This document shows positions 14,009-39,618 of a stretch of DNA of 64,000 nucleotides, one piece after another. Position numbers and translations under genes: made by a program. The notes beneath the pieces were generated by a model that was given only the letters and a program-made list of their open reading frames with translations, did not search any database and was not told the origin of the DNA. Position 1 is the stretch's first letter; the number at the start of each line of letters is the position of its first letter. The DNA comes from an uncultured cyanobacterium (lineage in GTDB: Bacteria > Cyanobacteriota > Cyanobacteriia > Cyanobacteriales > CAWUOF01), in NCBI GenBank assembly GCA_963744145.1, contig CAVUSO010000001.1, forward strand, positions 7,104,001 through 7,168,000, read 5' to 3'.

Positions 14009-14045
14009 AAGACATAGCACAATTTTTGATTAAGGAGAAACATCG

Positions 14046-15161: not shown

Positions 15162-15311
15162 AGCAGGTGTTAAGGGTGAGGTGTCAGAGATCAGATTTGA
15201 GGTTTCAGGATTGTTTTCTTTGACCATAAAACCTGATTCCTGGCATCGGAAATTTTTTCCTATCATCTGACACCTATTAATAATTTACTAGCATTAATTT
15301 AGAGGTAATTT

Positions 15312-16454
15312 ATGGTTGCAGATGCTAAAATGAAAAAAAAAGGTTTTGATTTCAATGAACTTCAAGACCAGATTAATTGCGCGATGTCCCCGGTGACAAT
15401 TAAGGATTTATCGATTTTTTCGCGCCAATTTGCTGCGATGTTTAATGCTGGCGTAGCAATGATTAGATGTCTTCAGGTATTAACTGAACAATGTCCTAAT
15501 CCGAAGTTAAGAAGAGCATTAATTCAAATTAGTGCTGAAGTCCAAGAGGGAACAAATTTATCTGAAGCAATGCGAAAACATACGGATTGCTTTGATGTAC
15601 TTTTTATCAGTATGGTGGCAGCAGGAGAGGTCGGTGGGGTGCTAGATGAAGTGCTGAACCGAACTGCAAAAATGATGGAAGATGCCGCTAGACTAGAAAA
15701 CGAATTAAAATCAGCGATGTCTTATCCAAAAACTGTTGGTGGGATTGCTGTGGTGATTTTTTTAGGAATGACAATTTTTCTACTCCCAACTTTTACCGGG
15801 ATTTTTGAACAACTAAAAGTGGAACTACCTCCCTTCACTCAAGCGATGATGAATATCAGTGAATTTCTCAGAGGTCCATTTTTACCACCCCCCAAACAGG
15901 GTTATGGAATCGTATTTTTTGTAGCTGGTTTGTTTGGAGCAAAACAACTCTATGAGATGTACTACAAAACACCAATGGGTCGGGTCCAAATTGATGGAAT
16001 ATTGTTGAAAATGCCGATTTTTGGAGATTTAATTGAAAAGACGGCGATCGCCCGTTTTTGTAACGTTTTTGGTACTTTAACTCGTTCCGGAGTGCCGATT
16101 TTAAACTCCTTAGAAATTGTGCGTGAAACCGCAGGAAACCAAGTAATTGCTAATGCAGTTGATGCGGTGCGTACTGATATTCAAAGTGGGGGGATGATTA
16201 GTACAACGATGAAACGAGAAGGAGTTTTCCCAGCTCTAGCGATTCAAATGATTGCGATCGGTGAAGAGACTGGGGAATTAGACAAAATGTTGATGAAAGT
16301 TGGTTCTTTTTATGAAGATGAAGTAGAACAGGCAATTAAAGGACTTACCAGTATGTTGGAACCATTGATGATTGTAGTCATCGGGGGGATGGTAGGTTCA
16401 ATTCTGCTTTCGATGTATCTACCAATTTTCAAAGTTATGGATGCGATCAAGTAG
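15312..16454 (+). CDS. pilC: Type IV pilus platform protein PilC (GspF family)
   Basis: FSRQFAAM, AGEVGGVLD, GEETGELD, LEPLMI. Confidence 0.95.
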   Translation: MVADAKMKKKGFDFNELQDQINCAMSPVTIKDLSIFSRQFAAMFNAGVAMIRCLQVLTEQCPNPKLRRALIQISAEVQEGTNLSEAMRKHTDCFDVLFISMVAAGEVGGVLDEVLNRTAKMMEDAARLENELKSAMSYPKTVGGIAVVIFLGMTIFLLPTFTGIFEQLKVELPPFTQAMMNISEFLRGPFLPPPKQGYGIVFFVAGLFGAKQLYEMYYKTPMGRVQIDGILLKMPIFGDLIEKTAIARFCNVFGTLTRSGVPILNSLEIVRETAGNQVIANAVDAVRTDIQSGGMISTTMKREGVFPALAIQMIAIGEETGELDKMLMKVGSFYEDEVEQAIKGLTSMLEPLMIVVIGGMVGSILLSMYLPIFKVMDAIK

Positions 16455-18473: not shown

Positions 18474-20462
18474 CTATTTAGTTTTAGATTCAACGGTGAC
18501 TCCCCAAGTATCTAAGGTCGTCCCTAGGGATTGATCGAGATTGGTCAAAGCGTTAAGATAAGTAATTTTAGCAACAAGTTCGTTAATTTTAGCTGTTACT
18601 AAAGCATCTTGATAAGTAACAATTTGAAAAAGGCTAGTAGAAGTTAGTCCTAATTTGTGTTTTTCTTCTTCGTTCTCTAATTGTTTTTCTGATGATTCCC
18701 GTGCTTGTCGAGTAAGTTCCACTTGTTGAAGACTCGAATTCACATTTCTGACGCTATTAGTTATTTCAATATCTATATTTTCCTGCAACTGGGCTAACTT
18801 GTTCTCTGATTCCAATAAATTGACTCGGTTACGTTGAAAGCTGTCTTCCACTGCATAATTATTGCCAAAGGTTCGACTCAATGTAAATTTTGCTTGTAAA
18901 GCTGCGGTTCCTACTTGTGCAGTACCATTCATATTGCCATAACTCGCATTAAAATCTAAATTCCAGCGTCGATTATCTGCTGCTATTAATAGGTTATATT
19001 TGTTCATATCATGGGTAAATTTTTGCTGTAAATAATCTGGTCGATTTTCAAAAGCTAGCTGTTTTAATCTATTTACATCTAAAGATTTTGCGGTGATGGT
19101 GAGATTTTCGATTGGGATAATATTAAGATTACGTTCAATATTCAGAAGATTGAGAAGTTGTAGTCTGGCTGTATCAAGAGCATCTTCTGCACTTAATAAA
19201 CTTGCTTTTTGGTTAGCAACATTAGTTTCATTTTGAACCAGATCAACTCGTGCTGATTTTCCTGCTTCAATAAAAGCCTGAGTAATTTCTAATAATTTCT
19301 GAGCACTAGCTAAGGAAATGCGCTGGATTTCTGCTTGTTGTTGGGCTTGAATTAAAGTTCTATAAGCTACAATAGCGTTAGTAATAGTGGTGATTAGGGT
19401 TGATTTTAAACCTTGAATGTTAGCGCGTTCAGTAAGTCGAGCAATGGCAATAGATGCTTGGTTGATATTAGCACCAAATCCTTGTAATAGGGGTTGATTA
19501 AAAGCTACCTGAAAAGCTTGATTGACGTTACCTTGGGTGATGAGATTACCAGACCCATTTGTCGTTGGTGATTGTCCTATTCCGGTCCAGCTAAAATCAA
19601 ATTCTCCACCCGTAGGAATCTTGACAGCAACTGTTGCTCCTACTCCGATTTGGCTAGAATTTGAGCTACTATAACCAACATCTTGTCGATTAATTGAAGC
19701 TGAGATACTAGGGATAATGCTAGGAACATATTTACTTTCTGCGACGCTGAGGTCTGCTCTTTGTGCTATTCTCTCTAAATAAGCAGTTTTGATATCTCTA
19801 TTATTTGCTAAAGCTAAAGTTACTACGTCAGCAAGGGTTAATTTGATTCCCTGTTGAGGTGGAACTAGAACTGATTTGTCTGGTGCTACACTAGGTTGAG
19901 GTGTGACTGGAACTGATTTGTCTGGTGCTATACTAGGTTGAGGTGTGATTGGAACTGATTTGTCTGGTGCTATACTAGGTTGAGGTGTGATTGGAATTGG
20001 TTGATCTGGTGCTACAGTAGGTTGAGGTGTGACTGGCTCTAGATTACTTACTAATAAATGTTTTGATGGTTGATTAACGGTAATTAATTGTTTGTTGTCA
20101 GAGTCGCGATCGCTTTGAGCCAAAATCACTGGTTGAGCCGTTAATCGATGATCAGTCAATTTTTCGACTTTATGACTAGATGGAGCCAGATCAGTAGTTG
20201 TTTGTTGATGATCTAAATCTAGAGATGAATTAATATTTGCTGATAATGCCCCTAGTAAAGATTTTTCTGGTAATAAGGTTTCAGCGCTAGCTTTAGCAGC
20301 AAATTTTAGATGGGATTTAAACAGAAAAGTAAAAATAGACAAAATACTGACTATCACACTAATTATCGCGATCGCTTTGATCACACTCACCCCGACAGGT
20401 TGAAAAAAGCGATCGCGTTGAACTTTTATTTTTTGGGGAGAACTTGGTGGTAACTCTGGCAT
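18474..20462 (-). CDS. TolC-family outer membrane efflux protein with an N-terminal Pro-rich repeat
   Basis: LTLADVVTLALANN, QPLLQGFG, OEP-type coiled segments. Confidence 0.9.
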   Translation of the reverse strand: MPELPPSSPQKIKVQRDRFFQPVGVSVIKAIAIISVIVSILSIFTFLFKSHLKFAAKASAETLLPEKSLLGALSANINSSLDLDHQQTTTDLAPSSHKVEKLTDHRLTAQPVILAQSDRDSDNKQLITVNQPSKHLLVSNLEPVTPQPTVAPDQPIPITPQPSIAPDKSVPITPQPSIAPDKSVPVTPQPSVAPDKSVLVPPQQGIKLTLADVVTLALANNRDIKTAYLERIAQRADLSVAESKYVPSIIPSISASINRQDVGYSSSNSSQIGVGATVAVKIPTGGEFDFSWTGIGQSPTTNGSGNLITQGNVNQAFQVAFNQPLLQGFGANINQASIAIARLTERANIQGLKSTLITTITNAIVAYRTLIQAQQQAEIQRISLASAQKLLEITQAFIEAGKSARVDLVQNETNVANQKASLLSAEDALDTARLQLLNLLNIERNLNIIPIENLTITAKSLDVNRLKQLAFENRPDYLQQKFTHDMNKYNLLIAADNRRWNLDFNASYGNMNGTAQVGTAALQAKFTLSRTFGNNYAVEDSFQRNRVNLLESENKLAQLQENIDIEITNSVRNVNSSLQQVELTRQARESSEKQLENEEEKHKLGLTSTSLFQIVTYQDALVTAKINELVAKITYLNALTNLDQSLGTTLDTWGVTVESKTK
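19853..20037 (-). repeat. 39-bp coding tandem repeat (PVTPQPSIAPDKS x~4.5)
   Basis: Seen directly in the TolC N-terminal region. Confidence 0.85.
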
Positions 20463-20496
20463 AATTACTAAAATTCCCTGATTCTAATAAGTCCAT

Positions 20497-21672
20497 TTAT
20501 GAACTACGCAAAGCTTTAACCGGATCGAGCTGACTAGCACGGAGAGCAGGTAGAAATCCAGACCCCACACCCACCAGTAGTGCTGAACCCAAAGATATGG
20601 TAGCAGTTCCCATATCAAAATGATAGGGTAATTTAAAAGTATCAGATACGACAATGGTCAAACCATGCACAACAATAATAGCAGCCAAACCACCGAATAA
20701 ACTTAAAATAGCTGCTTCTAGAATAAATTGGAACAGGACATCCTGCTGAGTTGCTCCGATCGCAATTCGTAAACCAATTTCTGGAGTACGTTCAATCACT
20801 GCGGCAATGGTAATATTAGCAATACCGACACCACCAACCAATAGGGAAATTGCACCTACTACGGTCAAAGCTCGCGATGCTAATACTAGAGTTTCTCGTT
20901 GTTCAAGAATATCTTTGATATTCTTGAAAATCAATATCTCTGCACCAGGAAACCGCTGTAACAACAGTTTTTTTACCTGCTCTTCGAGTTTGTTCAAATC
21001 TTCTAAATTGTATGGCCTTATTTCAATTGGATTGATCCAACGTCTACCGGTCATTGCAGTAAGGAGGGATAGTGGTACTAACATTTGTCCGCGAGGTTTA
21101 TCGTCTTTATAGAGCAACTTAGTTTCCATAACTCCTACAACAATATAGAGTCTACCGTCAGCATAAATCCGCTGATTGATGGGATTTTGTTGATTAAAAA
21201 GTTGCTCAGATAGCAATTCATCAATAATCACTACGGGTCGATAATTACTAAAATCAGCCTTATTTAAAAATCGTCCTTTTAGAATTAACCTACCTGAAGT
21301 AATTAAATAATTTTCAGAAACAGCAGTGATATCAAGATCAGCCGCTTTATCTTGAAATTTAATTTGATTGGCGGGAAACCAAGTAGAGGTACTCATTGCT
21401 TGCACACCCACTAACCGTCGTTTTAACCATTCCATGTCTTCTAACATCAGCTTTCTACTATCTTTAAACCATACATAAACTGTAACTCTCGGAGCTTCCC
21501 GTTTAGCTAATTGCTGTGCAATCACACTGCTACTAATATTACCAACTTGCAAAGTCGCATTCACCGCAGCCACCCCCATGAATACTCCCACCGTAGTAAG
21601 AACAGAGCGTAAAGGATTACCGCGCAGAGAATCCCAAGTAAGAGTTAGTAAATCTAAAACTGCTAGACTCAT
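20497..21672 (-). CDS. MacB/FtsX-like ABC transporter permease
   Basis: RSVLTTVGVFMG, VGGVGIANI, ERTPEIGLRIAIGA, LDPVKALRS. Confidence 0.9.
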   Translation of the reverse strand: MSLAVLDLLTLTWDSLRGNPLRSVLTTVGVFMGVAAVNATLQVGNISSSVIAQQLAKREAPRVTVYVWFKDSRKLMLEDMEWLKRRLVGVQAMSTSTWFPANQIKFQDKAADLDITAVSENYLITSGRLILKGRFLNKADFSNYRPVVIIDELLSEQLFNQQNPINQRIYADGRLYIVVGVMETKLLYKDDKPRGQMLVPLSLLTAMTGRRWINPIEIRPYNLEDLNKLEEQVKKLLLQRFPGAEILIFKNIKDILEQRETLVLASRALTVVGAISLLVGGVGIANITIAAVIERTPEIGLRIAIGATQQDVLFQFILEAAILSLFGGLAAIIVVHGLTIVVSDTFKLPYHFDMGTATISLGSALLVGVGSGFLPALRASQLDPVKALRSS

Positions 21673-21701
21673 AATTTAGATCCGGAGCATTAAATAATTT
21701 T

Positions 21702-23304
21702 TTATTTTTCTTTTTTAACAGGTTCTTTTTCAGGACTGGTTTGGAGTGTAATCGGGATTCCTGGTTTTAAAACTGAATCCGGAGAGGGTATTAAAACCTG
21801 ATCTTCTGCTTGCAAACCCTTAGACACTTCTACTGTTGTTAATCCTTCTAATCCCAAAGTAATCGGCTTTTTTTGGGCTTTACCTTCAGCATCTCTTACC
21901 CACACATAAGATGATTTTCCATCTCGCTGAATCGCCTCCGGTTCCTAATACTACTACGTTTTCTCGTCGCGCCAAAACGATTTCTACACTTACCTGACTA
22001 CCAGGTATTAGCTTTCCACTTGGTTCATCTAGTTGTACTGTTGCTGGTACTCCAACTTGACCCCCGGATGAACCGGATGAACCGGATGAACCTTTTGAAG
22101 CATCAGGACCGATCGCTTGGAGAGATATTTTTTTTACCCGTCCGCTAAATTTTTGTTCCTCTGGACCGATTACACTAATTCGGGCTGTTTGGTTCAATTT
22201 AACTTTGGCAGCATTAAGAGTAGAAAGACTAATTTTCACTAATTCTTGAGAGCGATCGCCTACCGTAATTAATTCAGCACCTCGTCCTACTCCATCACCA
22301 TTATTGCACTTAATATTCAAAACTATGCCGTTAATTGGAGAAGTGATAATATTATTTTCCAGTTCCTTTTCCAAAGTTTGTTTTTTAGTTTCAAGTCCTT
22401 GCATGTCTAGGTTACTAGATTGAGCGTCTACTTCAGCATTACGTAAAGTCGATACTGCTGTTGCTAAGTTAGATTGAAAATCTTTTAGAGCAGATTGAAG
22501 CGATTGAATGTCTTCGATGTTTTTTTGCTGATTTTGTTCTCTGGTTATCTGAGCTTGTTGCAGTGAAATCTTACTAGTATTGACTGCTAATTGAGCATCT
22601 CGGAGATTAGATTGAGCAGTACGAACATCGCTTTTTTTGGTATCTAGCTCATCTTCGGAAATAAAACCTCTTTGAAAAAGTTTCTCAGACACCTGAAGTT
22701 TTCGCTGTGCTGTAGCTAAATTGGCTTCGTTTTCAGGTAATTTTTGGATAGACTTTTCCAGGTCGATTTGTTTTTGCTGAATTTCTAATTGATTGTCGTT
22801 GCGTAATTGTTTTTGAATAGTCCGTTTGATCTCAAGTTCTTTGGATTGTAATTTTTGTTTACTTAGCGCCAAATTTTCTTCCGCTTCAGCGACTTTTTGT
22901 CGATTGCGGTTTACCGTGATCACCTGTTTGTTAATTGCAGATTGGATGTCTAGCTCCTTAGTTTTTCCATCTGGATTACGAAGCATAATTAGGGATTGTC
23001 CTGCTTGAACGCGATCGCCAATTTGGACAAGTACCTGATCTACAGTAACATCTCCTGGGGAATTCAGACTTTGTTGTGCTTGCAGTTCTACCACACCACT
23101 TTCATTAATGCTAATTTCCACGTTATCTTTTTTAGCTGTAGTCGCGAGGACTGAAATTGGTGCTAAGGTCGGATTAAGCAGTTTTTGCACTACAAAAAAC
23201 CAACCACCCACAGTAATTATAGCTAGTATGCCTGACCAGACTAACCATTTGAGCCCAATCTGAAATTCTTTTTTCCCCAATTTTCCGATCAAGCTCATTA
23301 CCAT
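21702..23304 (-). pseudogene. MacA-like periplasmic adaptor (membrane fusion protein), +1 frameshift near the 3' end
   Basis: ORFs 21886-23304 and 21702-21905 join to ...VVVLGT-EAIQRDGKSSYVWVRD... if one G is removed at ~21938-21939. Confidence 0.8.
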
Positions 23305-23374
23305 GATTTGCTTTTCGATGATGGTTGTTATCTAAAATCCGAACCAGCTAGCTTGCACAGATTCGGGACTTTAT

Positions 23375-25420
23375 TTAAAGCCGATAAACCCGATCGCACC
23401 CCCGAATTGTACTCTGGCGGTGAGCAACCACAATCCGCGTTATCCCTAATTTTTCCAAGCTTTGAGTCACGACCTCCTGAGTTTGATTATCCAAAGCCGA
23501 AGTAGCCTCATCAAAAATCAGGATACGTGGTTGACGAACTAAAGACCGAGCGATTAATAGCCGCTGTCGCTGTCCGCCGGAAAAATCCCCTCCTCCCTCT
23601 GATACTCTGGTGTGCATCTGCATCGGCATTTCCTGAATATCCCGATCCAATCCTGCCATTTTCGCTGCTTCCCAAGCTTGGTCGAGAGTGATCGGTATTC
23701 CTCCTGCAATTACATTCCAGATTGAACCTCCCATCAACCGACTATTCTGTAACACTACTCCTAACTGACTGCGTACCTTTGATATATCCAATGTCGCTAA
23801 ATCTCGTCCATTATACATTACAGCCCCTTGCGCTGGTCTTTCAAATCCCAACAATAACCGCACAATGGTCGATTTACCACTACCACTAGGTCCAATAATC
23901 CCGATCAACTCTCCTGGTTTCACCTCTAAAGTCAAGTCGGATAATACCCAAGGTTGATTCTGACCGTAACGAAACCAGACCCGCTCCAGTTTTACCTCTC
24001 CAGACAACTCTCCCGGATCAGCTCCTTGGTTAGTGGTTTCTGGAACTGCGTGCAATATTGGTTTTACTCGCTCCCATAACACCGAAATTTCCAACACGCT
24101 CACTACTGTCCTGCTCAGACTAGTAGCTCCACCCACAAATGTGCCAAATGCGGCGTTAAATGCTAAAAACTGTCCTGCTGATAAACCTCCATCTCCTGGA
24201 TTTTTGCCCAGAGTAGCCACAGCGAAAGAATATAAGGCGATCGCTGTCACGACCGGTACGATCGTATTAAACAGGGTCATAAAATCCTCTACCTGTTGAG
24301 TAGATAGGGTCAGCTTCATCTTTTGGCTATACTTCTTAGCCCATTTGCTAAGAGCCCTGTCTTCCGCAGCAGCAACCCGCAACTTAGATATTCCATCTAA
24401 AGTTTGCACCATCAATCCCACAATTTCACCGCTCAATTCTTGTAAGGGTAGGAACTTTTGCCGAGTAATGATGCCGACTATGACAGTGATCACACTGGTG
24501 ATTACCACCACCACAATTGCAACCATTGTCAAGGGAATGCTGTAGTAAAGCAATAAACCCAGATTCAACAGCGAGAAAAAGCTACTCAGCAAGGTGGTCA
24601 TTAAGGTGCTGTTGAGGCGATCGTGAATTTGAGAAATTGCCGATACTCGATTTTGAATATCTCCTGTGTTGTATTGGCGAAAAAATGATGTCTGGAGTCG
24701 CAATAATCTATGCCAAACTGCTGCTTGGATGTCCGCGCTCATCGCAGTTTGCCAGCGCATAGTCAGAATGCTTCTAGTCAGTTGCAGTACGGTCATAGCA
24801 AAGCTTGCTGCTAACAAACCGATCCCGATTTGTAATAATAGTCCGCGATCGCCATTGGGAATAATATAGTCAACCAGTAATGCTGTAGCCTGGGGAACTA
24901 CCATTCCCGCCAAGGAGACTAAAACTCCAAATAAGATGGTCTTGATTATGTCGCCATAACGACCCTGAAACACAAATTGGAGCAGATTTAGAGGAGAAAG
25001 CGATCGATCGGGAAACGGTCGATAAAAGGTATAGGCTTGATGGGATAGATGTTTGGCTGTAGCAAAGCCAACGGTCATGCGCTGGAAATTTACGGGGTCA
25101 AAGATTTCATATCCTCGACCATTCTTAGGTAGCAAAGCTACTGGGCGTTGTTCTGTTTCTGTAGCGATAAATCCGAGCAATGGTCCGTAATCTTGCTGCC
25201 ACCAAATATCATCTAAGGTAATCCGTCGGACTCGAAACCCAGAATTCTGAGCTATTGTCTCTACAGAATTTACTTGGCTTTTATTATTTTTGGGAGGAAT
25301 AATAGGGATGTCTAATACTTTACCCACTGCTCCCATAGCTATTAATAGGGGTTCTGTGGCGGAGTTAGCCTCGAACGCTGGATTGAGAATAGACGCTAGT
25401 TCTCTTAATGCTTCCTTCAT
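23375..25420 (-). CDS. NHLP-type bacteriocin export ABC transporter permease/ATPase (no peptidase)
   Basis: RVRRITLDDIWWQQDYGPLLGF, AYTFYRPFP, GPSGSGKST, FSGGQRQR. Confidence 0.9.
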   Translation of the reverse strand: MKEALRELASILNPAFEANSATEPLLIAMGAVGKVLDIPIIPPKNNKSQVNSVETIAQNSGFRVRRITLDDIWWQQDYGPLLGFIATETEQRPVALLPKNGRGYEIFDPVNFQRMTVGFATAKHLSHQAYTFYRPFPDRSLSPLNLLQFVFQGRYGDIIKTILFGVLVSLAGMVVPQATALLVDYIIPNGDRGLLLQIGIGLLAASFAMTVLQLTRSILTMRWQTAMSADIQAAVWHRLLRLQTSFFRQYNTGDIQNRVSAISQIHDRLNSTLMTTLLSSFFSLLNLGLLLYYSIPLTMVAIVVVVITSVITVIVGIITRQKFLPLQELSGEIVGLMVQTLDGISKLRVAAAEDRALSKWAKKYSQKMKLTLSTQQVEDFMTLFNTIVPVVTAIALYSFAVATLGKNPGDGGLSAGQFLAFNAAFGTFVGGATSLSRTVVSVLEISVLWERVKPILHAVPETTNQGADPGELSGEVKLERVWFRYGQNQPWVLSDLTLEVKPGELIGIIGPSGSGKSTIVRLLLGFERPAQGAVMYNGRDLATLDISKVRSQLGVVLQNSRLMGGSIWNVIAGGIPITLDQAWEAAKMAGLDRDIQEMPMQMHTRVSEGGGDFSGGQRQRLLIARSLVRQPRILIFDEATSALDNQTQEVVTQSLEKLGITRIVVAHRQSTIRGCDRVYRL

Positions 25421-25458
25421 TGCCCCTGATCTCTATGGAATTTAGGTAAGATGGCACA

Positions 25459-26394
25459 TCAGGGTGACGAATTCTGATGGGGAGTAAATCTCGCCAAAAG
25501 TTCAGTCTGAGATAATTGCCAGAGTAAGGGAACTAACTCATCTGTTGATAACTCAATCATTGGTTCAATGATCTGAGCAAGTTCTGGTTCTAAAGAGCCA
25601 AACCGAATCCGCAGCAAATTTTCTACGAATAAGCGTCGTTCCTGCAAACGTCCTTCCAGTCGTCCTTCTTGTCGTCCTTCCAGTCGTCCTTCTTGCAAAG
25701 TAGCTTGCCGCCATTCCACATAAGCTGGTGATAAATTCATCATTAACTCCCTGTCTTCTTCACTAATATTTTGTATGCTTTCTATGTTAATCCGCCACAT
25801 CGAAATCTGTTCTAAGGTTTTCATCCGAAAGGGATGTTCTACTGCTAGTGCTAAAAGTTCATTGATTGCTTGTTGTTGAGTTGCGCCTTTTCCTAAAATT
25901 CTCACCCACAATGTTTCTGGTGTTGTCGGTAATTGGTTGATGGCGACAATTGCTGTTTTGAAGATATCGGCGAGAAAATAGATGCCTTTTGGCCATTTCT
26001 CTCTGGCTGGTTCCGCTCTGGCTGTTGCGATTAATCCTGCCGAAACTGATGGTGTTAACACCCACAGTGAGGCGAGGTTTTCTTCTTCAAGTTGTTGACG
26101 ATCGCGCCTAGATTGGCGCTGTTGTTCTGTCTGTACAGCAATTAGTTTTAGTATACAGGTACGCAGCTCGGTTGGAGTAGGTTGATTCCGAAATGCTTCT
26201 AATAAACAAGTCCGCTCTACCATCTGTCCTAATAATCCTAGCTGATGGGGATTTGCGGTTGGTGCTGGCGCAAAAAATACATCTACTTGGCGGATTTCTG
26301 GGCTGACTTCTCGACTAATTTCTACTGTTCCTAATGGTTCTAGTAGTCCGGCTAAATATTGTTTCGCAAATTGATCGTGTGGTTGTCTGGTCAT
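25459..26394 (-). CDS. Rpn-like/DUF4351-type protein inserted in the export operon
   Basis: MTRQPHDQFAKQYL, QVDVFF, ETLWVRILGKG, C-terminal EGRLEGRQEG repeats and RFG motif. Confidence 0.8.
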   Translation of the reverse strand: MTRQPHDQFAKQYLAGLLEPLGTVEISREVSPEIRQVDVFFAPAPTANPHQLGLLGQMVERTCLLEAFRNQPTPTELRTCILKLIAVQTEQQRQSRRDRQQLEEENLASLWVLTPSVSAGLIATARAEPAREKWPKGIYFLADIFKTAIVAINQLPTTPETLWVRILGKGATQQQAINELLALAVEHPFRMKTLEQISMWRINIESIQNISEEDRELMMNLSPAYVEWRQATLQEGRLEGRQEGRLEGRLQERRLFVENLLRIRFGSLEPELAQIIEPMIELSTDELVPLLWQLSQTELLARFTPHQNSSP

Positions 26395-26582
26395 CCGTCT
26401 AATCTGATTGTTTCCTGACTCTCATTTTATCAATATTTTCGCGATCGCTCACACCACCTTGTTTTCCAAATATAGAAGATTGAATAGCGAGTCATTCTTG
26501 CTCCCCTTTCCTTTTAGGAGAGGGGTTGGGGGAGAGGTATTCTGCTAGCATGAAACAGCCTTGGGATCTAGAAATACTTCCT

Positions 26583-28781
26583 TCATTCTGCTAACTCATC
26601 CATTTTTGCCTCAGCACCCAGTAATTCTTGATAAACTCCCTCAACGGCGCATAATTGTTCATGAGTTCCTCGCTGTACCACTCGTCCGCGATCGAACACA
26701 ATAATTTCATCACAATCAACGATTGTACTTAATCGATGAGCGACTACAATACAAGTACATTGACGTTGGCGCAGATTTGCTACTAGCTGTCTCTCGGTGT
26801 CGGGATCTAATGCACTTGTAGCCTCATCCATAACTAAAATCGTGGGATTATTCACCAATGCACGGGCAATTTCTAAACGCTGACGCTGACCGCCACTGAG
26901 GTTGGCGCTGTGTTCTAATAGTTTAGCATCATATCCACCCAATACCTCCATCACTACATCATGGATCAGTGCATCTTTACAAGCTTTAATTAATTTTTCC
27001 TCTGGCACATTAGCATCCCAAAGGGTGAGATTATCTCGCACTGTTCCCTCAAACTGTAATATCTCTTGTTCCACAAAAGACAGCGATCGCGCCAGCATTA
27101 ATCGCGGAATTTGAGATCGGGGAATACCATCAAACAAGATCTCACCTTGCCAAGGTTGATCCAAACCACAAATCAATTTAGCGATCGTTGATTTCCCTGA
27201 ACCAGTTGCTCCTACCAGTGCTTTTCTTTGTCCTGGTTCTAAAGATAAACTAAAATCTTTAATTAGTGGCGGATTAACTGGAGAATAACCAAAGGTAATA
27301 TTTTTAATATCTACTCGACCTGTAAGTTGGACAAGGGTTTGGCTTGCTGTTGATTTCCTTGGCTCTAATTCGACATCGATGGAATTATCCAAAACGTCAT
27401 CTAAACGGGTTAAGTCTCCCTTTAGCTCCTGCAACAGGTTAGCAAACTGGACTAAAGTATTTACAGGTGCTTGAAACTGCCTCATTAAGACTTGAAAGGC
27501 GAATAACATACCGATTGTTAATCCACCTGACATCACTCGCCACCCACCAACTATTAAGATCATGGTGGTTGTGAGTGCGGTTAACAATGTTGGTACTATC
27601 CCTAGGATTTGGTTGTAAACATCAAGTTCCTGTTGGATGTTAGTCGTATTGGCGTAGGAACCAGACCAGACTGTGAAGAATTCTGACTCTAAACCAGATG
27701 CTTTTATAGTTTCAATGCTTTGAATTGCAGAGATGCCAACTCCGGTCATTCTCCCTTGTTCTTGGAGTAAACGCATCTGTGCATCTACTCTTTTTTGTGA
27801 CATCCATTTTAATACGAGGATATTCGCGATCGCCGAGCTAATACCTATCAACGTTAAGAGCGAGTCATATTCTAACATGATCGCCCCATAAAATACTACC
27901 ATCACTGCATCAATTGCGGTTGTTGCTAATTGCCCCGACAGAATTTCGGCAACTCTAGTATTAATATCAACCCGATTAGCAATTTCCCCTGCATATCGTT
28001 GGGCGTAAAATCGGACAGGTAATTTGAGAACATGATCATAAAAGCGGGCTGACATGACTACGGCTAACTTCACTTTTAGTTGGCGTAACAATCGTAGTCG
28101 TAACAGATTTAGGATACTCTGCAATAGGGTAGCAAAAGACATAGCTAAAAGTAACCCTGGTAACCAGTTGGTATGACTTTCTACCAGGATGCGATCGACA
28201 AATATTTGACTGAATACCGGAAGTGCTAATCCCGGCACAACCAGCAGAAAACCTGCGATGATTAAATACAATACTTCCCCAACCGAACCACGTAACCGAT
28301 CTATTAGGGATAAAAATACATTGGGTTGGCGTCCGCCAGGAATGAATTCTGGACTAGGTTCTATTTCTAAGATGATCCCAGTAAAACTGCGAGCAAATGC
28401 TTTCCAGGAAATCTGTCGCCTGCCGCCCGCCGGATCGTTGAGAAATACCCGAGTGCGATTGTACCCCTCTACTACTAAAAAGTGATTGAAATTCCAATAA
28501 GCAATGCAGGGGAATGTGACTTCGGGGAGTTCTTCTAGTTCGATCGTATAGCCATTAGCGATCATCCCATAGCGTCTCGCTGCTAACACCAGATTAGCAG
28601 CATGAGAGCCATCACGAGATACACCGCATTCAATCCGCAGTTCGGCTAGTGGAACTATGCGACCGTAGTAGGCGAGAATGATCCCAAGAGAGGCTGCGCC
28701 ACATTCGGTCGCTTCCATTTGGATCACGATCGGAGTTTTAACTCGCCAGTTGTTTGATGGCAAAAATTCTGGCAATAGCAT
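26583..28781 (-). CDS. NHLP-type peptidase-containing ABC transporter (C39 peptidase/permease/ATPase)
   Basis: QMEATECGAASL (catalytic Cys), WNFNHF (His), GATGSGKST, LSGGQRQR. Confidence 0.93.
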   Translation of the reverse strand: MLLPEFLPSNNWRVKTPIVIQMEATECGAASLGIILAYYGRIVPLAELRIECGVSRDGSHAANLVLAARRYGMIANGYTIELEELPEVTFPCIAYWNFNHFLVVEGYNRTRVFLNDPAGGRRQISWKAFARSFTGIILEIEPSPEFIPGGRQPNVFLSLIDRLRGSVGEVLYLIIAGFLLVVPGLALPVFSQIFVDRILVESHTNWLPGLLLAMSFATLLQSILNLLRLRLLRQLKVKLAVVMSARFYDHVLKLPVRFYAQRYAGEIANRVDINTRVAEILSGQLATTAIDAVMVVFYGAIMLEYDSLLTLIGISSAIANILVLKWMSQKRVDAQMRLLQEQGRMTGVGISAIQSIETIKASGLESEFFTVWSGSYANTTNIQQELDVYNQILGIVPTLLTALTTTMILIVGGWRVMSGGLTIGMLFAFQVLMRQFQAPVNTLVQFANLLQELKGDLTRLDDVLDNSIDVELEPRKSTASQTLVQLTGRVDIKNITFGYSPVNPPLIKDFSLSLEPGQRKALVGATGSGKSTIAKLICGLDQPWQGEILFDGIPRSQIPRLMLARSLSFVEQEILQFEGTVRDNLTLWDANVPEEKLIKACKDALIHDVVMEVLGGYDAKLLEHSANLSGGQRQRLEIARALVNNPTILVMDEATSALDPDTERQLVANLRQRQCTCIVVAHRLSTIVDCDEIIVFDRGRVVQRGTHEQLCAVEGVYQELLGAEAKMDELAE

Positions 28782-29162
28782 TTAGCAACTTGTAACTTAA
28801 TTTTTCTTTAGACTTCTTGCAAAAATAACTAGGACAGGCAAGATGCCTGTCCCACATGATGGCAAAAATTCTGGCAATAGCATTTAGCAACTTGTAACTT
28901 AATTTTTCTTTAGACTTCTTGCAAAAATAACTAGGACAGGCAAGATGCCTGTCCCACATGATGGCAAAAATTCTGGCAATGGCATTTAGCAACTTGTAAC
29001 TTAATTTTTCTTTAGACTTCTTGCAAAAATAACTAGGACAGGCAAGATGCCTGTCCCACATGATGGCAAAAATTCTGGCAATGGCATTTAGCAACTTGTA
29101 ACTTAATTTTTCTTTAGACTTCTTGCAAAAATAACTAGGACAGGCAAGATGCCTGTCCCACA
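28755..29162. repeat. Four tandem 102-bp near-identical units
   Basis: Units start at 28755, 28857, 28959 and 29061. Copies 1-2 have aatagcat and copies 3-4 have aatggcat. Confidence 0.95.
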
Positions 29163-29236
29163 AGAGTTTTTTTGGTTGTGGGACAGGCATCTTGCCTGTC
29201 CAGTAAATTGATCAACATGACTTTTGCAAGAGGTCT
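29116..29236. mobile_element. MITE-like element
   Basis: Ends AGACTTCTTGCAAAA / TTTTGCAAGAGGTCT enclose inverted GGACAGGCAAGATGCCTGTCCCACAA palindromes; partial relative at ~45846-45878. Confidence 0.65.
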
Positions 29237-29238
29237 TT

Positions 29239-29914
29239 TCATTTGTAGATTGGCAACACAAAGGATAGGGGCGGACGCTCTTCGACGGTGACTGTTGCTG
29301 TTATTGTAGTTCCAGCGATCAGATGTAAATCCGGTCCGTTAGAAGCCGTCCATTTCAAACCCGAAGGATTATTGGAATCGGTTTGCAGTTGAGCAATAAC
29401 TTCTATTTTCTCGACCTCCTCACCCACAATCTTCTGGGCTATTCTTGAATTTCCGATTACCTTCGTGGCACTTTCTACGGTGGTGGGATTCTGGGAAACA
29501 TCAATAATTTTGCCTAGAATTGAGCCAAATTTCTCCCGCTTAACAATATCTGGTGTGATCTGAATTTTCATTCCCGGTTTAACTCGCAGACTGTCTGACA
29601 GATCCAGAAAAGCTACTGCGGTCAGAGTTGCGGTTTTGCTCTTGCCGATCGGATGCACTAATACAGCCTCGACCGGAAACAGTAATGGGAATTTTGCCAA
29701 AAATCCCCCAAAGAAGGCTGAAGATTACCATTGTGCCAAATCCTGCCAAGGTCAGCCAATCCATCGGACGCAATAAGCGCATCGCCCGATCGAGTTGCTC
29801 TGTGGAATATAAATAGTCTACGGCTTCTTGACGGAATATCTGTCTGGGTAATTCCTCTGGAGCAGTGGGAGCATCTGACGGGTTTTCGTTTCTCTGTTGA
29901 GTTTCTTCGGTCAT
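29239..29914 (-). pseudogene. NHLP bacteriocin secretion HlyD-family protein (short form), +1 frameshift
   Basis: IFRQEAVDYLYSTEQLD...WGIFGKIPITVSGR joins AVLVHP...FGSILGKI...ERPPLSFVLP if one G is removed at ~29667-29668. Confidence 0.8.
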
Positions 29915-29931
29915 AGAACTCTAAATTTTAT

Positions 29932-30867
29932 TTATGCTGGATAACTCAAATCCCCCTGACGAATGCGCTCAATGAAATATTTTGGCATGGTTCCCACCCA
30001 CTTTTCTTTGATCACTCCATTTTCTAATAGCACGGCTGTAGGTATGATATTGATTCCTAACTTTTCTTGTTGCTTTTGTTCGATTGGTACTATGGGATAG
30101 TTTAATTCATTATTGTCGATAAACTCTTGCCCTTCTGCTATTGATGTTAAGGCGATCGCGCCGATCACTTCTGGTAAGTCCTCTCGATAGTGAACCACAT
30201 TAAGAACATTCAACCAGTTCTTACAAGCTGGGCATTTCATCCCTAAAAATACTATTAGTTTGGAACCAGACATAAATAATGTTGGATCAAACTCATCCCC
30301 TAACCATTCTGGTCGCCAAGTGCGGTTGGCTTTCACTGGGGTTAAATCGATATAGGGACGACTGTTCTGCCCATAATATTCTAGGGAACCAGAAGCTAAA
30401 GCACCGCTAGTAACTAGGGTGGCTAATACTACTAGCCACTGCCACAATACTGTAGGCTGGTTGTTCTCAAGGAAGGTAGCAAATACTAATAGAGCAATAT
30501 AGACCAAATTGAGGATGATACTTTGATTGGGTGTCACATTTAGCCAACCGTTATAACATCCACAGTCCTCTGTGCGTCCCGTCGAAGTGCTCCAGTAGGT
30601 GAGAAACGTAAGGATAATTAATAACAGGATGGTCAGAGGAATTATTCCTGATGGTAGCACTCCTAAAATTAGAGCCACTCCTAATGCACATTCGAGCGCC
30701 GTAAATGTTAATGCTGCCGCTCGAATTGACGGAAATTTCTGCAATAGCTTGAGTTTGGAAATGTGTTCAACAAATTTCCAAGGTTCGATGACTTTGGCTA
30801 CACCAGTCAATAATAAAATGCTCCCTACCAGGAGCGACGGAATTACAGTATATGTGTCTGTAAACAT
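29932..30867 (-). CDS. MauE/DoxX membrane domain fused to a thioredoxin-like domain
   Basis: TM helices with TGVAK and DCGCY; C-terminal KCPACK (CxxC) and IIPTAVLLENG (cis-Pro loop). Confidence 0.85.
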   Translation of the reverse strand: MFTDTYTVIPSLLVGSILLLTGVAKVIEPWKFVEHISKLKLLQKFPSIRAAALTFTALECALGVALILGVLPSGIIPLTILLLIILTFLTYWSTSTGRTEDCGCYNGWLNVTPNQSIILNLVYIALLVFATFLENNQPTVLWQWLVVLATLVTSGALASGSLEYYGQNSRPYIDLTPVKANRTWRPEWLGDEFDPTLFMSGSKLIVFLGMKCPACKNWLNVLNVVHYREDLPEVIGAIALTSIAEGQEFIDNNELNYPIVPIEQKQQEKLGINIIPTAVLLENGVIKEKWVGTMPKYFIERIRQGDLSYPA

Positions 30868-31050
30868 TTGCTGAAAAATTTATTTTGGCTAATTGTTTTA
30901 GTCCTAAATTTATGGCGGTTTTTTTAAACCATTATTCCTAATTATTAGCTTTTTTGCGATTCTCCGCGTGATTATTGTCTCTATCTGCCGATTTTTTGCC
31001 TAATTTATCTATTTTAGATGGCATTTTTTTTGATTTGTTAAAAACAATAG

Positions 31051-31085
31051 AGGGAGAAACAGGCATCTTGGGTCTGCTTCTCCCT
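31051..31085 (-). terminator. Putative intrinsic terminator/attenuator downstream of the precursor gene
   Basis: Minus strand AGGGAGAAGCAGAC...GCCTGTTTCTCCCT followed by CTATTGTTTTT. Confidence 0.6.
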
Positions 31086-31224
31086 GTTGTCACACACCAT
31101 TAAACAGGTAATGAAATCCTCGAGGATTTCGAGGGTTACAACCGCAACCAAGGAAAGGGTAGCGGTTAGAGAGTTAGGTTAGTGGTGTTTAACAACCGCA
31201 ACCAGGGGTATCAAGAAATCAGGG

Positions 31225-31392
31225 TTAGAAAGGGTTAGAGGGTTGGGTTGGTTGTGCGTAACAAGGACAAACAGAATCTCCACAGGCACAAGCCCCAACA
31301 ACCCCTTGCAATTGCTCCATCGCAAGTTGATTGAGTTGCTTCATTCCCCGCTGAGTTCCTGTGCGCTTTAGAGGTTGGTTAGATTTAGCCAT
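31225..31392 (-). CDS. Double-glycine-type RiPP/bacteriocin precursor, Cys-rich core (55 aa)
   Basis: Hand-translated: MAKSNQPLKRTGTQRGMKQLNQLAMEQLQGVVGA-CACGDSVCPCYAQPTQPSNPF*. SD-like AAAAGGTACAGGG upstream; heads the C39 exporter operon. Confidence 0.8.
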   Translation of the reverse strand: MAKSNQPLKRTGTQRGMKQLNQLAMEQLQGVVGACACGDSVCPCYAQPTQPSNPF

Positions 31393-31850
31393 ATCCCTGT
31401 ACCTTTTGAGTATTAATTGGTTGACCTCTTTATTAGAATTCTTTTTTTCTGATCATGCTGTGTTCTTGGCCACAGGCTGTAAGTGTTTCCGATCACTTGC
31501 CAACTACTCGTTCCATGCCTATAATCGCGATTCGTGATGGGGCGTGATGGCAGAGAAAATCAGAAAGCCGCGATCGCCTCAGTCCACTAGAAAATATAGC
31601 GATCGCGATTAGACCAGCAAGCAAAAGTCAGTCCCACCATCAAAAATTAATCTTGTGGGACACTCAGCTTGACTATCCTAGTTATTTTGGCTTTCTTGTC
31701 TATATGTGGATGGAACGCAAGCGATCGCTGGTTGGGGATGAGCATGGCGATCGCCTTGACCAGCCAATTATCTAAGGTACGATAATTTCCATGATTTTCA
31801 GCTACAATTAGTTAATTGGCCAAAAAAATCAATAAAAAAGGATAATCCCG

Positions 31851-32177
31851 ATGACAGAAAGACTAGATAGAATAGAAGCTGTGATCGAAGCCAATTCAGC
31901 CCAAATTCAAGCCAATTCAGCCCAAATTCAAACCAATTCAGCCACAATTGCAGAACTGGGCACTAGGATCAATTCATTGATGCAAGTTGTAGAAATCAAT
32001 CAACGTAATCAGGAAGTAAGCCAAGCTGAACTGAGTGCTGCGGTCAATTCATTGTTGCAAGTTGTAGAAATACATCAACGCAACTTTGAGGTGATTATGA
32101 ATGAAATTAGAGGGATTCGTACAGAAAACCAACGCATATTAGAACATTTATTTGGTCAACCAGAAAATGGAAAATGA
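31851..32177 (+). CDS. Small coiled-coil hypothetical protein with internal repeats
   Basis: ANSAQIQ repeats, NSLxQVVEIxQRN twice, C-terminal IRGIRTENQRILEHLFG; SD AAAGGA. Confidence 0.75.
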   Translation: MTERLDRIEAVIEANSAQIQANSAQIQTNSATIAELGTRINSLMQVVEINQRNQEVSQAELSAAVNSLLQVVEIHQRNFEVIMNEIRGIRTENQRILEHLFGQPENGK

Positions 32178-32252
32178 ACGCACTTTTTTAGGTACTACGA
32201 TCGCCGACAAATTCATAACTCTGGTTTCTTTGGCTCCCGCTATTTTCAATTA

Positions 32253-32358
32253 GGCGATCGCTTTGCCCCAAACCTGGGTCGCGGATTAACAACTATTATA
32301 ACTGAATAAGACCAATTTTACACTTCAGCTGCACTAGGAAAGCAGAGACTACCGACCT
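32253..32358. repeat. 106-bp direct repeat, copy 1
   Basis: ggcgatcgctttgccccaaacc...ctaccgacct, nearly identical to 32966-33071. Confidence 0.9.
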
Positions 32359-32371
32359 TATTAGTGCCTGT

Positions 32372-32707
32372 CTATGCTACTCCAAACCCCGTATACTCTC
32401 GGACATAGCGAGGTTGAAGTCCCAAGACGATATCTTCTTTAGTCACACCTATTTCTACTAATTCTTCAGCGATACTTTTGTCTGTTTGATTGCGCTGAAT
32501 CCAGATTTTGCCATCTTTGATATCCAAGTGAATAAAGCAGTTATAAACGCGGTGATGTTCATTCCATCCCAAATCGATAATTAGATAGCGATCGCGTTCT
32601 TTATCAAAAACTACTTCCACTTCTATTTCACCATTAATAGGTGGTGACTTCCCGTATGCTAATAACAACTTTTCAATACACTGACGATAATACTCTAGTT
32701 TATCCAT
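32372..32707 (-). CDS. xisI: XisI family protein
   Basis: MDKLEYYRQ, FDKERDRY, IHLDIKDGKIWIQ, EDIVLG. Confidence 0.9.
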   Translation of the reverse strand: MDKLEYYRQCIEKLLLAYGKSPPINGEIEVEVVFDKERDRYLIIDLGWNEHHRVYNCFIHLDIKDGKIWIQRNQTDKSIAEELVEIGVTKEDIVLGLQPRYVREYTGFGVA

Positions 32708-38536: not shown

Positions 38537-38578
38537 TGATCTCGAACCGCATTTAGTTCCCTGTAAAAGAGGTTGACA

Positions 38579-39295: not shown

Positions 39296-39618
39296 AACAG
39301 TATCGACAATTTATTAAGCAAATTTTGACAGAACACGCCGAAATTGCTACCACTACTGATCCAGTAAAAGCAGAATTAATATTTGATTCCGAACATGACC
39401 ATTATCAACTCGCATTCGTGGGTTGGCAGGGAGATAAGCGAGTCTTTGGCCCAGTGATGCACTTTGATATTCAAGATGGCAAAATCTGGATTCAGTATAA
39501 CGGTACGGAAGATTTGGTGGCAGAAAGATTGGTTGAGATGGGTGTACCGACTTCAGATATCGTTCTCGGTTTTCATTCCGCTTTTAAACGCCAATTTACT
39601 CGTTATGCAGTTGGTTAA
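39283..39618 (+). CDS. xisI: XisI family protein
   Basis: MDKVEQYRQ, FDSEHDHYQL, GKIWIQYNGTE, DIVLGF. Confidence 0.9.
   Translation: MDKVEQYRQFIKQILTEHAEIATTTDPVKAELIFDSEHDHYQLAFVGWQGDKRVFGPVMHFDIQDGKIWIQYNGTEDLVAERLVEMGVPTSDIVLGFHSAFKRQFTRYAVG

Follow-up and report, generated by a model that had tools for sequence, protein, structure and literature searches.

A MauE-thioredoxin fusion in an NHLM-type peptide export operon of an uncultured cyanobacterium: a candidate disulfide oxidase for a cysteine-rich leader peptide

What would mature the cargo of a peptide export operon in which the familiar modification enzymes are missing and a MauE-thioredoxin (MauE-Trx) fusion is encoded beside the exporters? 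The question is raised by positions 18474-31392 of a 64,000-nucleotide stretch (the window) from the genome of an uncultured cyanobacterium (7.7 Mb in 4 contigs, completeness 96.3%), where a tightly spaced, co-oriented block on the minus strand holds a small 4-Cys candidate precursor, MauE-Trx, and the genes of an NHLM-type exporter (Table 1). A sequence-only reading of the window had listed the genes of this block, all of which are present, and had claimed that LanM, YcaO, radical SAM, DUF692, and P450 genes are absent; none of these families, and no glycosyltransferase family, was matched in Pfam and NCBIfam scans of the open reading frames (ORFs) of at least 100 aa in 18474-32707. We consider it fairly probable, from gene content and motifs, that this is (or was until recently) a "group V"/NHLM-type operon for peptide export, with a 4-Cys peptide bearing a double-glycine (GG) leader as its cargo and a dedicated disulfide oxidase as its sole tailoring enzyme.

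Precursor, MauE-Trx fusion, and exporter

The candidate precursor ORF translates to MAKSNQPLKRTGTQRGMKQLNQLAMEQLQGVVGA followed by the core CACGDSVCPCYAQPTQPSNPF. The 34-aa leader ends in LQGVVGA (from the internal Met17 it would be 18 aa), and the 21-aa core has Cys at core positions 1, 3, 8, and 10, giving two CxC pairs four residues apart; it has no basic residue and one Ser N-terminal to a Cys, with otherwise no Ser/Thr-Cys pairing. The calculated mass of the core is 2186.85 Da reduced and 2182.82 Da with two disulfides. Double-glycine leaders carry Gly at -2, Gly, Ala, or Ser at -1, and hydrophobic residues at -4, -7, -12, and -15. The precursor has the positional pattern of GG/GA leader peptides, with Ala at -1, Gly at -2, Val at -4, and Leu at -7, -12, and -15. 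A six-frame scan of the whole 7.7-Mb genome for hydrophobic residues at -15, -12, -7, and -4 followed by G-[GA] and a core with at least 4 Cys returned two ORFs, one being the precursor ORF; the scan pattern was drawn up post hoc, with the peptide already known, in line with the positional rule. The precursor ORF matched no Pfam or NCBIfam model at E ≤ 0.01, hence no NHLP or Nif11 leader model, and its leader is not of the long type of those families. It lies 357 nt upstream of the single MauE gene that the genome encodes, and its 3′ flank (31030-31224) folds into a stable structure (-60.2 kcal/mol, z = -5.67, 0 of 200 shuffles folding as well) that includes a terminator-like site at 31134-31118.

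We aligned contigs of four public sequencing runs to 21500-31500; X1 comes from a run with identical contigs, perhaps of the source sample, and X2, X3, and X4, from three studies, represent relatives that are ~94-95% identical. In the X2 and X4 contigs the leader is kept, with an in-frame 9-nt insertion behind 31358, and in X4 142 unlike letters replace 31121-31288, which covers the core and its 3′ flank. This variation appears to follow the conserved-leader, variable-core pattern expected of such precursors. One X2 contig (record 12, depth 45.7) joins 31146, just past the precursor, to 28393 inside the C39-ABC gene and omits MauE-Trx, the adaptor, and the C39 domain; it could stem from a different locus, from a variant with a deletion, or from chimeric assembly.

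The fusion protein belongs to the MauE family by PF07291 (59 bits against a gathering threshold of 27) and by a CxC motif in the loop that precedes helix 4. Across 31 aligned sequences D101, C102, G103, C104, Y105, C212, C215, and P276 are invariant, and the CxC pair provides the sole conserved cysteines of the MauE membrane domain. The Trx domain carries a C212-P-A-C215 motif and the cis-Pro P276 and is TlpA/ResA-like. In an AlphaFold2 model (predicted local distance difference test score, pLDDT, 86.7; predicted template modeling score, pTM, 0.73) there are five long helices (2-27, 45-68, 72-95, 113-133, and 141-168); D101-C-G-C-Y105 falls in the loop 96-112 between the helices 72-95 and 113-133, and from about residue 186 onward the chain forms an alpha/beta domain. 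Because two helices separate the CxC loop from the Trx domain in the model, both are predicted to lie on the same side of the membrane. A naive positive-inside topology was rejected, as it conflicts with the TOPCONS topology given in the accessible text of a preprint on MauE (10.64898/2026.03.05.709764), and we therefore relied on the same-side argument alone. In a Foldseek search the Trx domain matched 48 Protein Data Bank (PDB) chains at E ≤ 1e-3, among them FetE, ResA, CcmG, DsbF-like proteins, and StoA (best match 8t4c_A, E = 2.5e-5; ResA 1st9_A, E = 1.5e-4), and the matches are extracytoplasmic TlpA/ResA/CcmG/DsbF-like proteins. At the profile level the C-terminal part has weak ResA/StoA/MauD matches (NCBIfam ResA 23.1 against a cut-off of 170), and the CxxC, the cis-Pro, the model, and the Foldseek matches together place it in the TlpA/ResA-like thioredoxin fold, as a fold class only.

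The accessible text of the preprint (10.64898/2026.03.05.709764) states that MauE complements Escherichia coli dsbB, with the CXC as the required active site, that this replacement works for two MauE proteins from two phyla, and that 8.2% of InterPro MauE entries are thioredoxin fusions. The genome analyzed here also encodes one VKOR-Trx fusion (311 aa, CPHC), which we take to be the housekeeping enzyme, MauE-Trx being an accessory, patchily distributed candidate for a second oxidase. MauE-Trx was matched in 2 of 60 related genomes, both times partially, and in 101 clusters at E ≤ 0.001, mostly cyanobacterial, among 5.8 billion proteins. The ratio of nonsynonymous to synonymous substitution rates (dN/dS) of MauE-Trx is 0.21 against the nearest genome locus available for comparison, that of a Crinalium metagenome-assembled genome (MAG; 76-85% protein identity).

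Two of the three exporter proteins belong to the NHLM cassette; the adaptor and the leader fall outside the family definitions. The C39 exporter (ABC1) scores 1075.5 bits with TIGR03796 (cut-off 853.3), covers model positions 1-709 of 710, has a Peptidase_C39 domain (6e-35), and is 85% identical to its Crinalium ortholog (dN/dS = 0.14). The peptidase-less ABC2 scores 866.9 bits with TIGR03797 (cut-off 709.4) over model positions 2-655 of 686 (dN/dS = 0.17). Neither this protein nor its Crinalium ortholog covers the final ~30 model positions, both having the same 681-aa end ...CDRVYRL, and a recent truncation was rejected because Crinalium ends at the same residue. The profile check proposed with the sequence-only reading came out positive for the MauE, TIGR03796, and TIGR03797 models, each above its cut-off; TIGR03794 matched the adaptor in two fragments, both under the cut-off.

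What had been called HlyD is of that family, but it is not an intact full-length gene. Two overlapping ORFs (29579-29914 and 29239-29700) match TIGR03794 positions 4-56 (9.3e-14) and 290-419 (2.9e-38) of 421; the fragments reach 131.9 and 51.2 bits, the cut-off being 156.2, and no full-length HlyD-type protein above that cut-off is encoded. One extra base at 29665 splits the gene (+1 frameshift). Apart from this break the adaptor lacks ~230 central model positions (57-289), the region that in HlyD-type adaptors comprises the lipoyl domain and the coiled-coil hairpin reaching TolC. The Crinalium ortholog is a single 232-aa ORF, and the frame here changes after ...TVSGRG. Intact short adaptors of 221-232 aa occur in four protein clusters (P0103-P0106), the three beyond Crinalium measuring 221-225 aa at 75-76% identity; the adaptor is in one frame in the X2-X4 contigs, and its dN/dS against Crinalium is 0.18 in the N part and 0.33 in the C part. 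We therefore rejected the short HlyD as a decaying remnant and regard it, on these comparisons, as a conserved form rather than debris. All four core genes are under purifying selection (dN/dS 0.14-0.33 against Crinalium). The other NHLM exporters of the genome, beside LanM, have full-length adaptors.

In the mechanism that we propose, the 55-aa precursor would be made, the C39 domain of ABC1 would, judging from family membership, cut after Gly-Ala, and ABC1, ABC2, and the short adaptor would, on the same grounds, move the 21-aa core out of the cytoplasm. The periplasmic TlpA-like Trx domain (CPAC) would put up to two disulfides into the core, and the CxC loop of MauE would reoxidize the Trx domain and pass the electrons to quinone, as the motifs, the model topology, and the published DsbB-like activity of MauE suggest; the peptide would exit through a TolC-type channel. 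A dedicated oxidative-folding module is supported by the invariant CxC, CxxC, and cis-Pro residues, by the additional presence of VKOR-Trx, by the linkage of homologs to peptides and ABC genes described below, and by the preprint on MauE as an oxidase. The short adaptor suggests release of the cargo into the periplasm. A rather unlikely extension of this would be a two-step export in which the short adaptor uncouples the C39-ABC from the outer-membrane duct, MauE-Trx folds the peptide in the periplasm, and a MacAB/DevBC-like pump with TolC expels it. E. coli MacAB-TolC, which is said to expel the enterotoxin STII, is the model for such a route.

Neighborhoods of MauE-Trx homologs

We scanned genome contigs for MauE-Trx by alignment and obtained 66 loci (numbered with the prefix L), many of which are cut by contig ends; a scan of genome contigs with the single MauE-Trx protein found no relative, and a scan of metagenome contigs yielded no more than a match of 25 residues. 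By tblastn with the window proteins, 19 of the 66 loci have NHLM-type ABC genes nearby, 10 of them with a C39 region; a group of nine loci, from eight Okeania MAGs/isolates and one further MAG, has the ABC2 type only. Small Cys-containing ORFs with leaders judged canonical GG by eye occur at ~19 of 66 loci, in ~8 lineages of Cyanobacteriota and Acidobacteriota. The linkage of MauE-Trx homologs to C39 transporters and Cys-rich precursors, by which the sequence-only reading was to be judged, was thus found in two phyla, and with it the core of that reading, an exported Cys-rich GG peptide with MauE/Trx oxidative folding, stands; its statement that the cluster is of no known class and its inclusion of the three downstream genes in the system did not (see below).

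GG-leader ORFs with at least two core Cys, as found by regular expression, number 55 in 346.9 kb within 3 kb of the MauE-Trx gene (0.159/kb), 33 in 492.3 kb further off (0.067/kb), and 286 in the 7703 kb of the genome under study (0.037/kb), and are present in 29 of the 66 loci; the locus counts include kin and are not independent, hence no statistical test was made. In Crinalium a leader ending in IERIRGG precedes a 49-aa, 7-Cys core, and Nostoc L043 has three 6-Cys peptides with ...FGG/FGS leaders. Two Acidobacteriota MAGs (L050, 7273-8883; L051, 7148-8882) each have five tandem paralogs adjoining MauE-Trx, with 6-9 Cys and ...SAVFGG followed by CNEDRP.... Paraprochloron L066 has ...ITGG followed by CQF..., and L007 has MSELDKVSGG followed by a 2-Cys core.

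A Pfam scan of the neighbors covered 20 loci (175 of 204 listed ORFs) and found C39-ABC genes in six of them (L007, L043, L048, L050, L057, and L062). MauE-Trx lies beside LanM and an NHLP-type Cys-rich precursor in L056 and L060 (Acidobacteriota), and beside an APH-type kinase and GG peptides in L035 and L040; L021 has an ABC2-type gene only, and L066 has rotamase and AMP-binding/PP-binding genes, a 6-Cys GG peptide, and only ABC fragments. PqqD-like, nucleotidyltransferase (NTP_transf_5 in L044 and L045), and glycosyltransferase genes accompany MauE-Trx in L044, L045, and L063, the last (Gemmatimonadaceae) having in addition an HPr-kinase-like gene. L031 carries three GG-leader peptides despite having no exporter or maturation gene. 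Short HlyD_3-only proteins (193 and 268 aa) occur in the clusters L043 and L048, and full-length adaptors in L007 and L062. The linkage of MauE-Trx to exporters and peptides thus seems frequent, not universal.

Several neighborhoods have features of their own. L050 and L051 also contain two C39-type ABC genes with a cyclic nucleotide (cNMP)-binding domain and an AMP-binding/PP-binding protein, a type that recurs in L062 and L066; L043 and L048 have C39-ABC exporters of the long (cNMP-binding) type. A SurA-like peptidyl-prolyl isomerase (rotamase) adjoins MauE-Trx in L043 (9099-9983), L048 (9048-9860), and L066 (10926-11633), and the two would make a periplasmic folding duo of prolyl isomerase and disulfide oxidase. 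Three clusters (P0088, P0090, and P0091) and L044 (9983-11548) encode triple fusions of MauE, Trx, and a 2-oxoglutarate (2OG)-Fe(II) oxygenase, 521-537 aa long. In Nostoc L031, L035-L041, and L053, several of them lichen-associated MAGs, GG-leader peptides of the form ...LDDADLL..[IV]GG lie ~0.3-1.3 kb upstream of MauE-Trx; their cores are chaplin-like 2-Cys domains (Pfam ChpA-C, 3.5e-25 in L040) beside an APH-type kinase and uncharacterized genes. Cyanobacterial export of chaplin-like amyloid domains by means of a leader may deserve separate attention.

State of the operon in this genome

The copy of the operon in the window differs from its relatives by lesions and insertions. The extra base at 29665 is missing in X2, X3, and X4, and X1 has no cover there, so that it may be a true mutation or a consensus error. 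A second frameshift affects the DevB/MacA-like gene, which three-frame translation shows to shift by +1 at a GG near 21944-21945, and no indel row appears at this site in the aligned run contigs; both frameshifts could be consensus errors. Tandem Repeats Finder (TRF) placed an array between the adaptor and ABC1 (period 102, 4.0 copies, 99% matches), each unit of which combines a hairpin and T-run with the C39-ABC gene's 5′ leader and initial 9 codons. It presents four intrinsic-terminator-like sites on the minus strand, in the direction of transcription, and its 48-bp hairpin part is a dispersed repeat with ~260 further matches in the genome. X2, X3, and X4 lack the array (joint 28809->29243, 433 nt skipped).

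They also lack the gene between the two ABC genes at 25459-26394 (joint 25410->26577, 1166 nt skipped), which is likewise absent from Crinalium. The label "Rpn-like" that this gene had received was not borne out, as it has no match in Pfam or NCBIfam. By tblastn it has six further near-full-length matches in the genome (39-51% identity) and several C-terminal fragments that are 84-93% identical, and a language-model search for look-alikes returned cyanobacterial clusters, one with DUF4351 in 12% of its members. A 52% identical relative lies downstream of broken MauE-Trx genes in Paraprochloron L066 and L068.

Given the adaptor frameshift, the four terminator-like hairpins before ABC1, and the gene inserted between the ABC genes, the operon in this genome is probably weakened or silenced. 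The accessible text of Wang et al. (2011; PMC3140520) describes truncations, insertions, frameshifts, and rearrangements as frequent in such clusters. The other window genes are whole by Pfam coverage, which would argue against a generally error-ridden assembly; the completeness of 96.3% and a split DevA-family ATPase elsewhere in the genome (C1:5267611-5268265, model positions 1-153 and 155-219) hint at some indel errors. Damaged as it looks, this copy is a poor experimental starting point, whereas the Crinalium-type clusters (L005, L006) are intact.

Table 1 Features of the block at 18474-31392 of the window
Feature	Coordinates	Strand	Evidence or remark
Precursor ORF, 55 aa	31225-31392	-	leader 31291-31392 (34 aa), core 31228-31290 (21 aa)
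Structured 3′ flank of precursor: stem-loops, one with a T-run behind	31030-31224	-	RNA fold
MauE-thioredoxin fusion, 311 aa	29932-30867	-	PF07291 7.4e-16, 59 bits (cut-off 27)
Short NHLM HlyD-type adaptor, ~225 aa if one frame	29239-29914	-	TIGR03794, two ORFs
Tandem array, 4 x 102 bp	28755-29162		TRF; between adaptor and C39-ABC gene
C39 peptidase/permease/ATPase exporter (NHLM ABC1), 732 aa	26583-28781	-	TIGR03796, Peptidase_C39, ABC_membrane, ABC_tran
Inserted multi-copy gene of no assigned family, 311 aa	25459-26394	-	tblastn copies in genome
Second ABC permease/ATPase without peptidase domain (NHLM ABC2), 681 aa	23375-25420	-	TIGR03797
DevB/MacA-like periplasmic adaptor, frameshifted; doubtful member	21702-23304 (21886-23304 + tail ORF 21702-21905)	-	
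DevC/MacB-type permease without ATPase domain; doubtful member	20497-21672	-	MacB_PCD, FtsX
TolC-like outer-membrane factor, Pro-rich repeat in N-terminal extension; doubtful member	18474-20462	-	OEP 3.4e-34

Downstream of ABC2 lies a trio that had been counted as part of the system and described as MacA-like, MacB-like, and TolC. All three are present, and their membership is doubtful, because in the ~94% relatives they are not adjacent or alike, in Crinalium the corresponding trio is convergent and 31-42% identical, an ATPase is lacking, and one gene is frameshifted. The similarity of X2, X3, and X4 stops exactly at 23375, the stop codon of the ABC2 gene, and the Crinalium trio occupies L005 10747-14956; in both the window and Crinalium a DevB-DevC-TolC-like trio without a DevA/MacB-type ATPase adjoins the NHLM genes. 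The MacA-like gene is of that family (21886-23304 matches HlyD_3, HlyD_D23, and DevB family at 1.6e-15) and not intact, its tail lying in the ORF 21702-21905 (RND_mfp positions 270-320). The MacB-like gene is indeed a permease (MacB_PCD 3.6e-22, FtsX 8.8e-20), matching MacB positions 256-645 only, and neither an ATPase domain nor a separate ATPase gene goes with it: among the DevA-family matches listed, the only ATPases within the block are the two NHLM ABC genes, and no DevA/MacB-type gene lies there. With permease and OEP present, the adaptor frameshifted, and the ATPase absent, the trio does not make up a MacAB-TolC or DevBCA-TolC pump. The N-terminal extension of the TolC-like protein contains a 42-bp x 4.4 tandem repeat (19853-20036) encoding PQPS[IV]APDKSVP units.

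Outside the block, the flanking regions 12002-16454, 32372-32707, and 38573-39618 encode type IV pilus/type II secretion system ATPases (two T2SSE) and T2SSF, together with two XisI genes and one XisH gene, the last of these matching only positions 3-105 of 134. The XisH/XisI genes and the names of relatives mark the genome as cyanobacterial. Opposite the cluster, 31851-32177 on the plus strand is a 108-aa ORF with 21-nt tandem repeats (QANSAQI units), coiled-coil-like repeats, and no family match above a cut-off.

Alternative explanations and related systems

Several observations weigh against an operon for export and oxidative folding of this peptide. The canonical type I route bypasses the periplasm and would keep the cargo from a periplasmic oxidase. 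The precursor has no homologs beyond its near-identical relatives, since the search of 5.8 billion proteins returned only the ORF itself and a search of 400 genomes of the same order one chance-level match (E = 0.0037, with an internal stop), and the case for it would be one of context, leader pattern, and one in-frame indel. The folds matched by the Trx domain are mostly reductases (ResA, CcmG), so that the structure leaves the redox direction undecided, and the accessible text of the preprint cites an older proposal of MauE as a reductase (10.64898/2026.03.05.709764). The operon carries two frameshifts and polar-looking insertions. Five of the 20 Pfam-scanned loci (L008, L012, L028, L031, and L054) have no exporter or peptide-maturation gene within 6 kb, from which it appears that MauE-Trx can also serve other substrates, and many orthologs, e.g., in Trichodesmium, Dapis, Xenococcus, and Arthrospira, lack both peptide and exporter within 6 kb. 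MauE-Trx could then be a general periplasmic oxidoreductase, or one with another substrate, next to the exporter by chance and with the small ORF not its substrate; the 47 of 66 loci without an NHLM-type ABC gene by tblastn (many of them cut by contig ends) and the portrayal of MauE as a generalist oxidase in the accessible text of the preprint (10.64898/2026.03.05.709764) point the same way. We regard this as unlikely, because the genome already has VKOR-Trx, MauE-Trx is rare among kin, the operon-like order of precursor, MauE-Trx, and adaptor is kept in Crinalium and in three ~94% relatives, and Cys-containing GG peptides are enriched beside homologs.

A different alternative concerns the present state of the operon and is compatible with the proposed design: the exporter operon may no longer work in this organism, and the peptide, if made, would not be exported by it. 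The private extra base at 29665, the +1 frameshift in the DevB-like gene, the four terminator-like hairpins between adaptor and ABC1, and the private gene insertion all fit such a dead remnant, as do the frequency of lesions of this kind (Wang et al. 2011; PMC3140520, accessible text) and the wholeness of the other window genes, which speaks against general assembly error. We take this to be a serious possibility, rated a little short of even, as ABC1, ABC2, and MauE-Trx have kept their full length and show purifying selection when compared with Crinalium, a consensus error is possible at 29665 (no cover in X1), the completeness and the split devA-like gene hint at indel errors, and full-length NHLM adaptors exist elsewhere in the genome. 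The four Cys might otherwise bind metal (Cu/Zn) or stay reduced, with the Trx domain acting as reductase, isomerase, or immunity factor. A core without basic residues and with two CxC pairs at a distance of four residues would suit this, and so would the reductases among the nearest solved folds; yet the CxC provides the only conserved cysteines of the membrane domain, so that a DsbD/CcdA-like electron route from the cytoplasm is lacking, peptides neighboring MauE-Trx elsewhere have 2, 4, or 6+ Cys in disulfide-type patterns (chaplin-like, 6-Cys frames), and MauE acts as an oxidase in dsbB complementation according to the accessible text of the preprint (10.64898/2026.03.05.709764). This makes metal binding or a reduced peptide quite improbable in our view. 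Least probable is modification by a maturase encoded elsewhere, e.g., the LanM of the genome, to a lanthipeptide or another classical ribosomally made and post-translationally modified peptide (RiPP). A single LanM gene occurs in the genome (C1:5148596, with an open frame of 1049 aa), next to other NHLM exporters, and L056 and L060 do pair MauE-Trx with LanM and an NHLP-type precursor; against this, the gene is ~2 Mb away with exporters of its own, the leader here is short and matches no NHLP or Nif11 model, and one Ser N-terminal to a Cys is the only Ser/Thr-Cys pairing in the core. With LanM absent from the block and present as a single distant copy, the locus does not belong by gene content to the class II lanthipeptides of the prochlorosin type.

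Among leader-peptide export clusters, those of Firmicutes (glycocins, pediocin) and Bacteroidota (bacteroidetocins) are known to have disulfide machinery of their own. The statement that a cluster of this design matches no characterized class does not hold in view of two analogs, sublancin and the glycocins (BdbAB with SunT) and the bacteroidetocins (thiol oxidoreductase, five-transmembrane (TM) protein, and C39-ABC). Of BdbB, Dorenbos and colleagues are said to have found in 2002 that it is DsbB-like and essential for sublancin. Sublancin 168 and the glycocins (SunA, SunT, BdbA/BdbB; GccB, GccC/D) share with the locus a GG-leader multi-Cys peptide, a C39-ABC, and a cluster-encoded membrane oxidase with a thioredoxin-like protein, and glycocin clusters carry BdbAB/GccCD with SunT-type exporters in the accessible text of PMC12457901. 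The locus differs in having no glycosyltransferase, and thus no SunS-type enzyme, in a membrane oxidase of the MauE rather than the DsbB family that is fused to its Trx partner, and in its host, a diderm cyanobacterium with a three-gene NHLM export cassette. Bacteroidetocins (class IIf) are, as far as the accessible text of Coyne et al. (2019; PMC6671954) goes, encoded in a diderm four-gene unit of a 4-Cys GG-leader peptide, a thiol oxidoreductase, a 5-TM protein, and a C39-ABC, and deletion of the thiol oxidoreductase or the TM protein attenuates the toxin. Compared by gene content only, the bacteroidetocin unit has its oxidoreductase and TM protein as separate genes; the mature bacteroidetocin has 42 aa and is class IIa-related (PMC6671954), whereas the core at this locus is a non-basic 21-mer without relatives. 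By analogy, the locus would work like both systems and be a member of neither.

Group V of Wang et al. (2011) and the NHLM cassette (TIGR03794/03796/03797) have, like the locus, an HlyD-type adaptor, a short-type C39-ABC, and a peptidase-less second ABC. The locus departs from them in an adaptor without model positions 57-289 and a leader of neither NHLP nor Nif11 type, and the main text of Wang et al. (PMC3140520) has no mention of cysteine, disulfide, thioredoxin, or MauE. In MauE/MauD of methylamine dehydrogenase, as is proposed here, a CxC MauE and a CxxC thioredoxin-fold partner form disulfides in a small Cys-rich polypeptide; the locus has no mau genes, and its presumed substrate is an exported, leader-bearing peptide. 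Cyanobacterial VKOR-Trx resembles MauE-Trx as a quinone-linked membrane oxidase with a periplasmic Trx domain in one polypeptide, and differs from it as a housekeeping protein of the VKOR family, MauE-Trx being of the MauE family, seldom met among kin, and part of a cluster. The idea that MauE takes part in peptide maturation has already been published with decRiPPter, whose accessible text lists three candidate Streptomyces RiPP families with mauE (PMC7794033), and TMcin uses the DsbA-type TmcD, not MauE, according to the accessible text of PMC13252029. The accessible text of the preprint 10.64898/2026.03.05.709764 draws no link from MauE to C39 exporters or leader peptides, and our literature search found no paper tying MauE or MauE-Trx to C39 exporters or GG-leader peptides (the supplements of the preprint may bear on this).

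MauE has only just been proposed as a third bacterial disulfide-generating membrane enzyme, and the locus with its relatives joins it to peptide export clusters: MauE-Trx recurs by C39 exporters and GG-leader Cys peptides, including 6-Cys knottin-like frames, chaplin-like domains, and an NHLP/LanM case. The short adaptor poses the question of how a periplasmic oxidase would gain access to what a type-I-like exporter carries, and if the two-step export were true, MauE-Trx would be the marker of a class of bacterial peptides, spread across phyla, that are rich in disulfides, depend on a leader, and fold in the periplasm. If the proposed function of the operon is true, MauE would gain natural, genetically linked substrates, and the MauE-Trx gene would be a simple genome-mining handle for disulfide-rich secreted peptides of bacteria.

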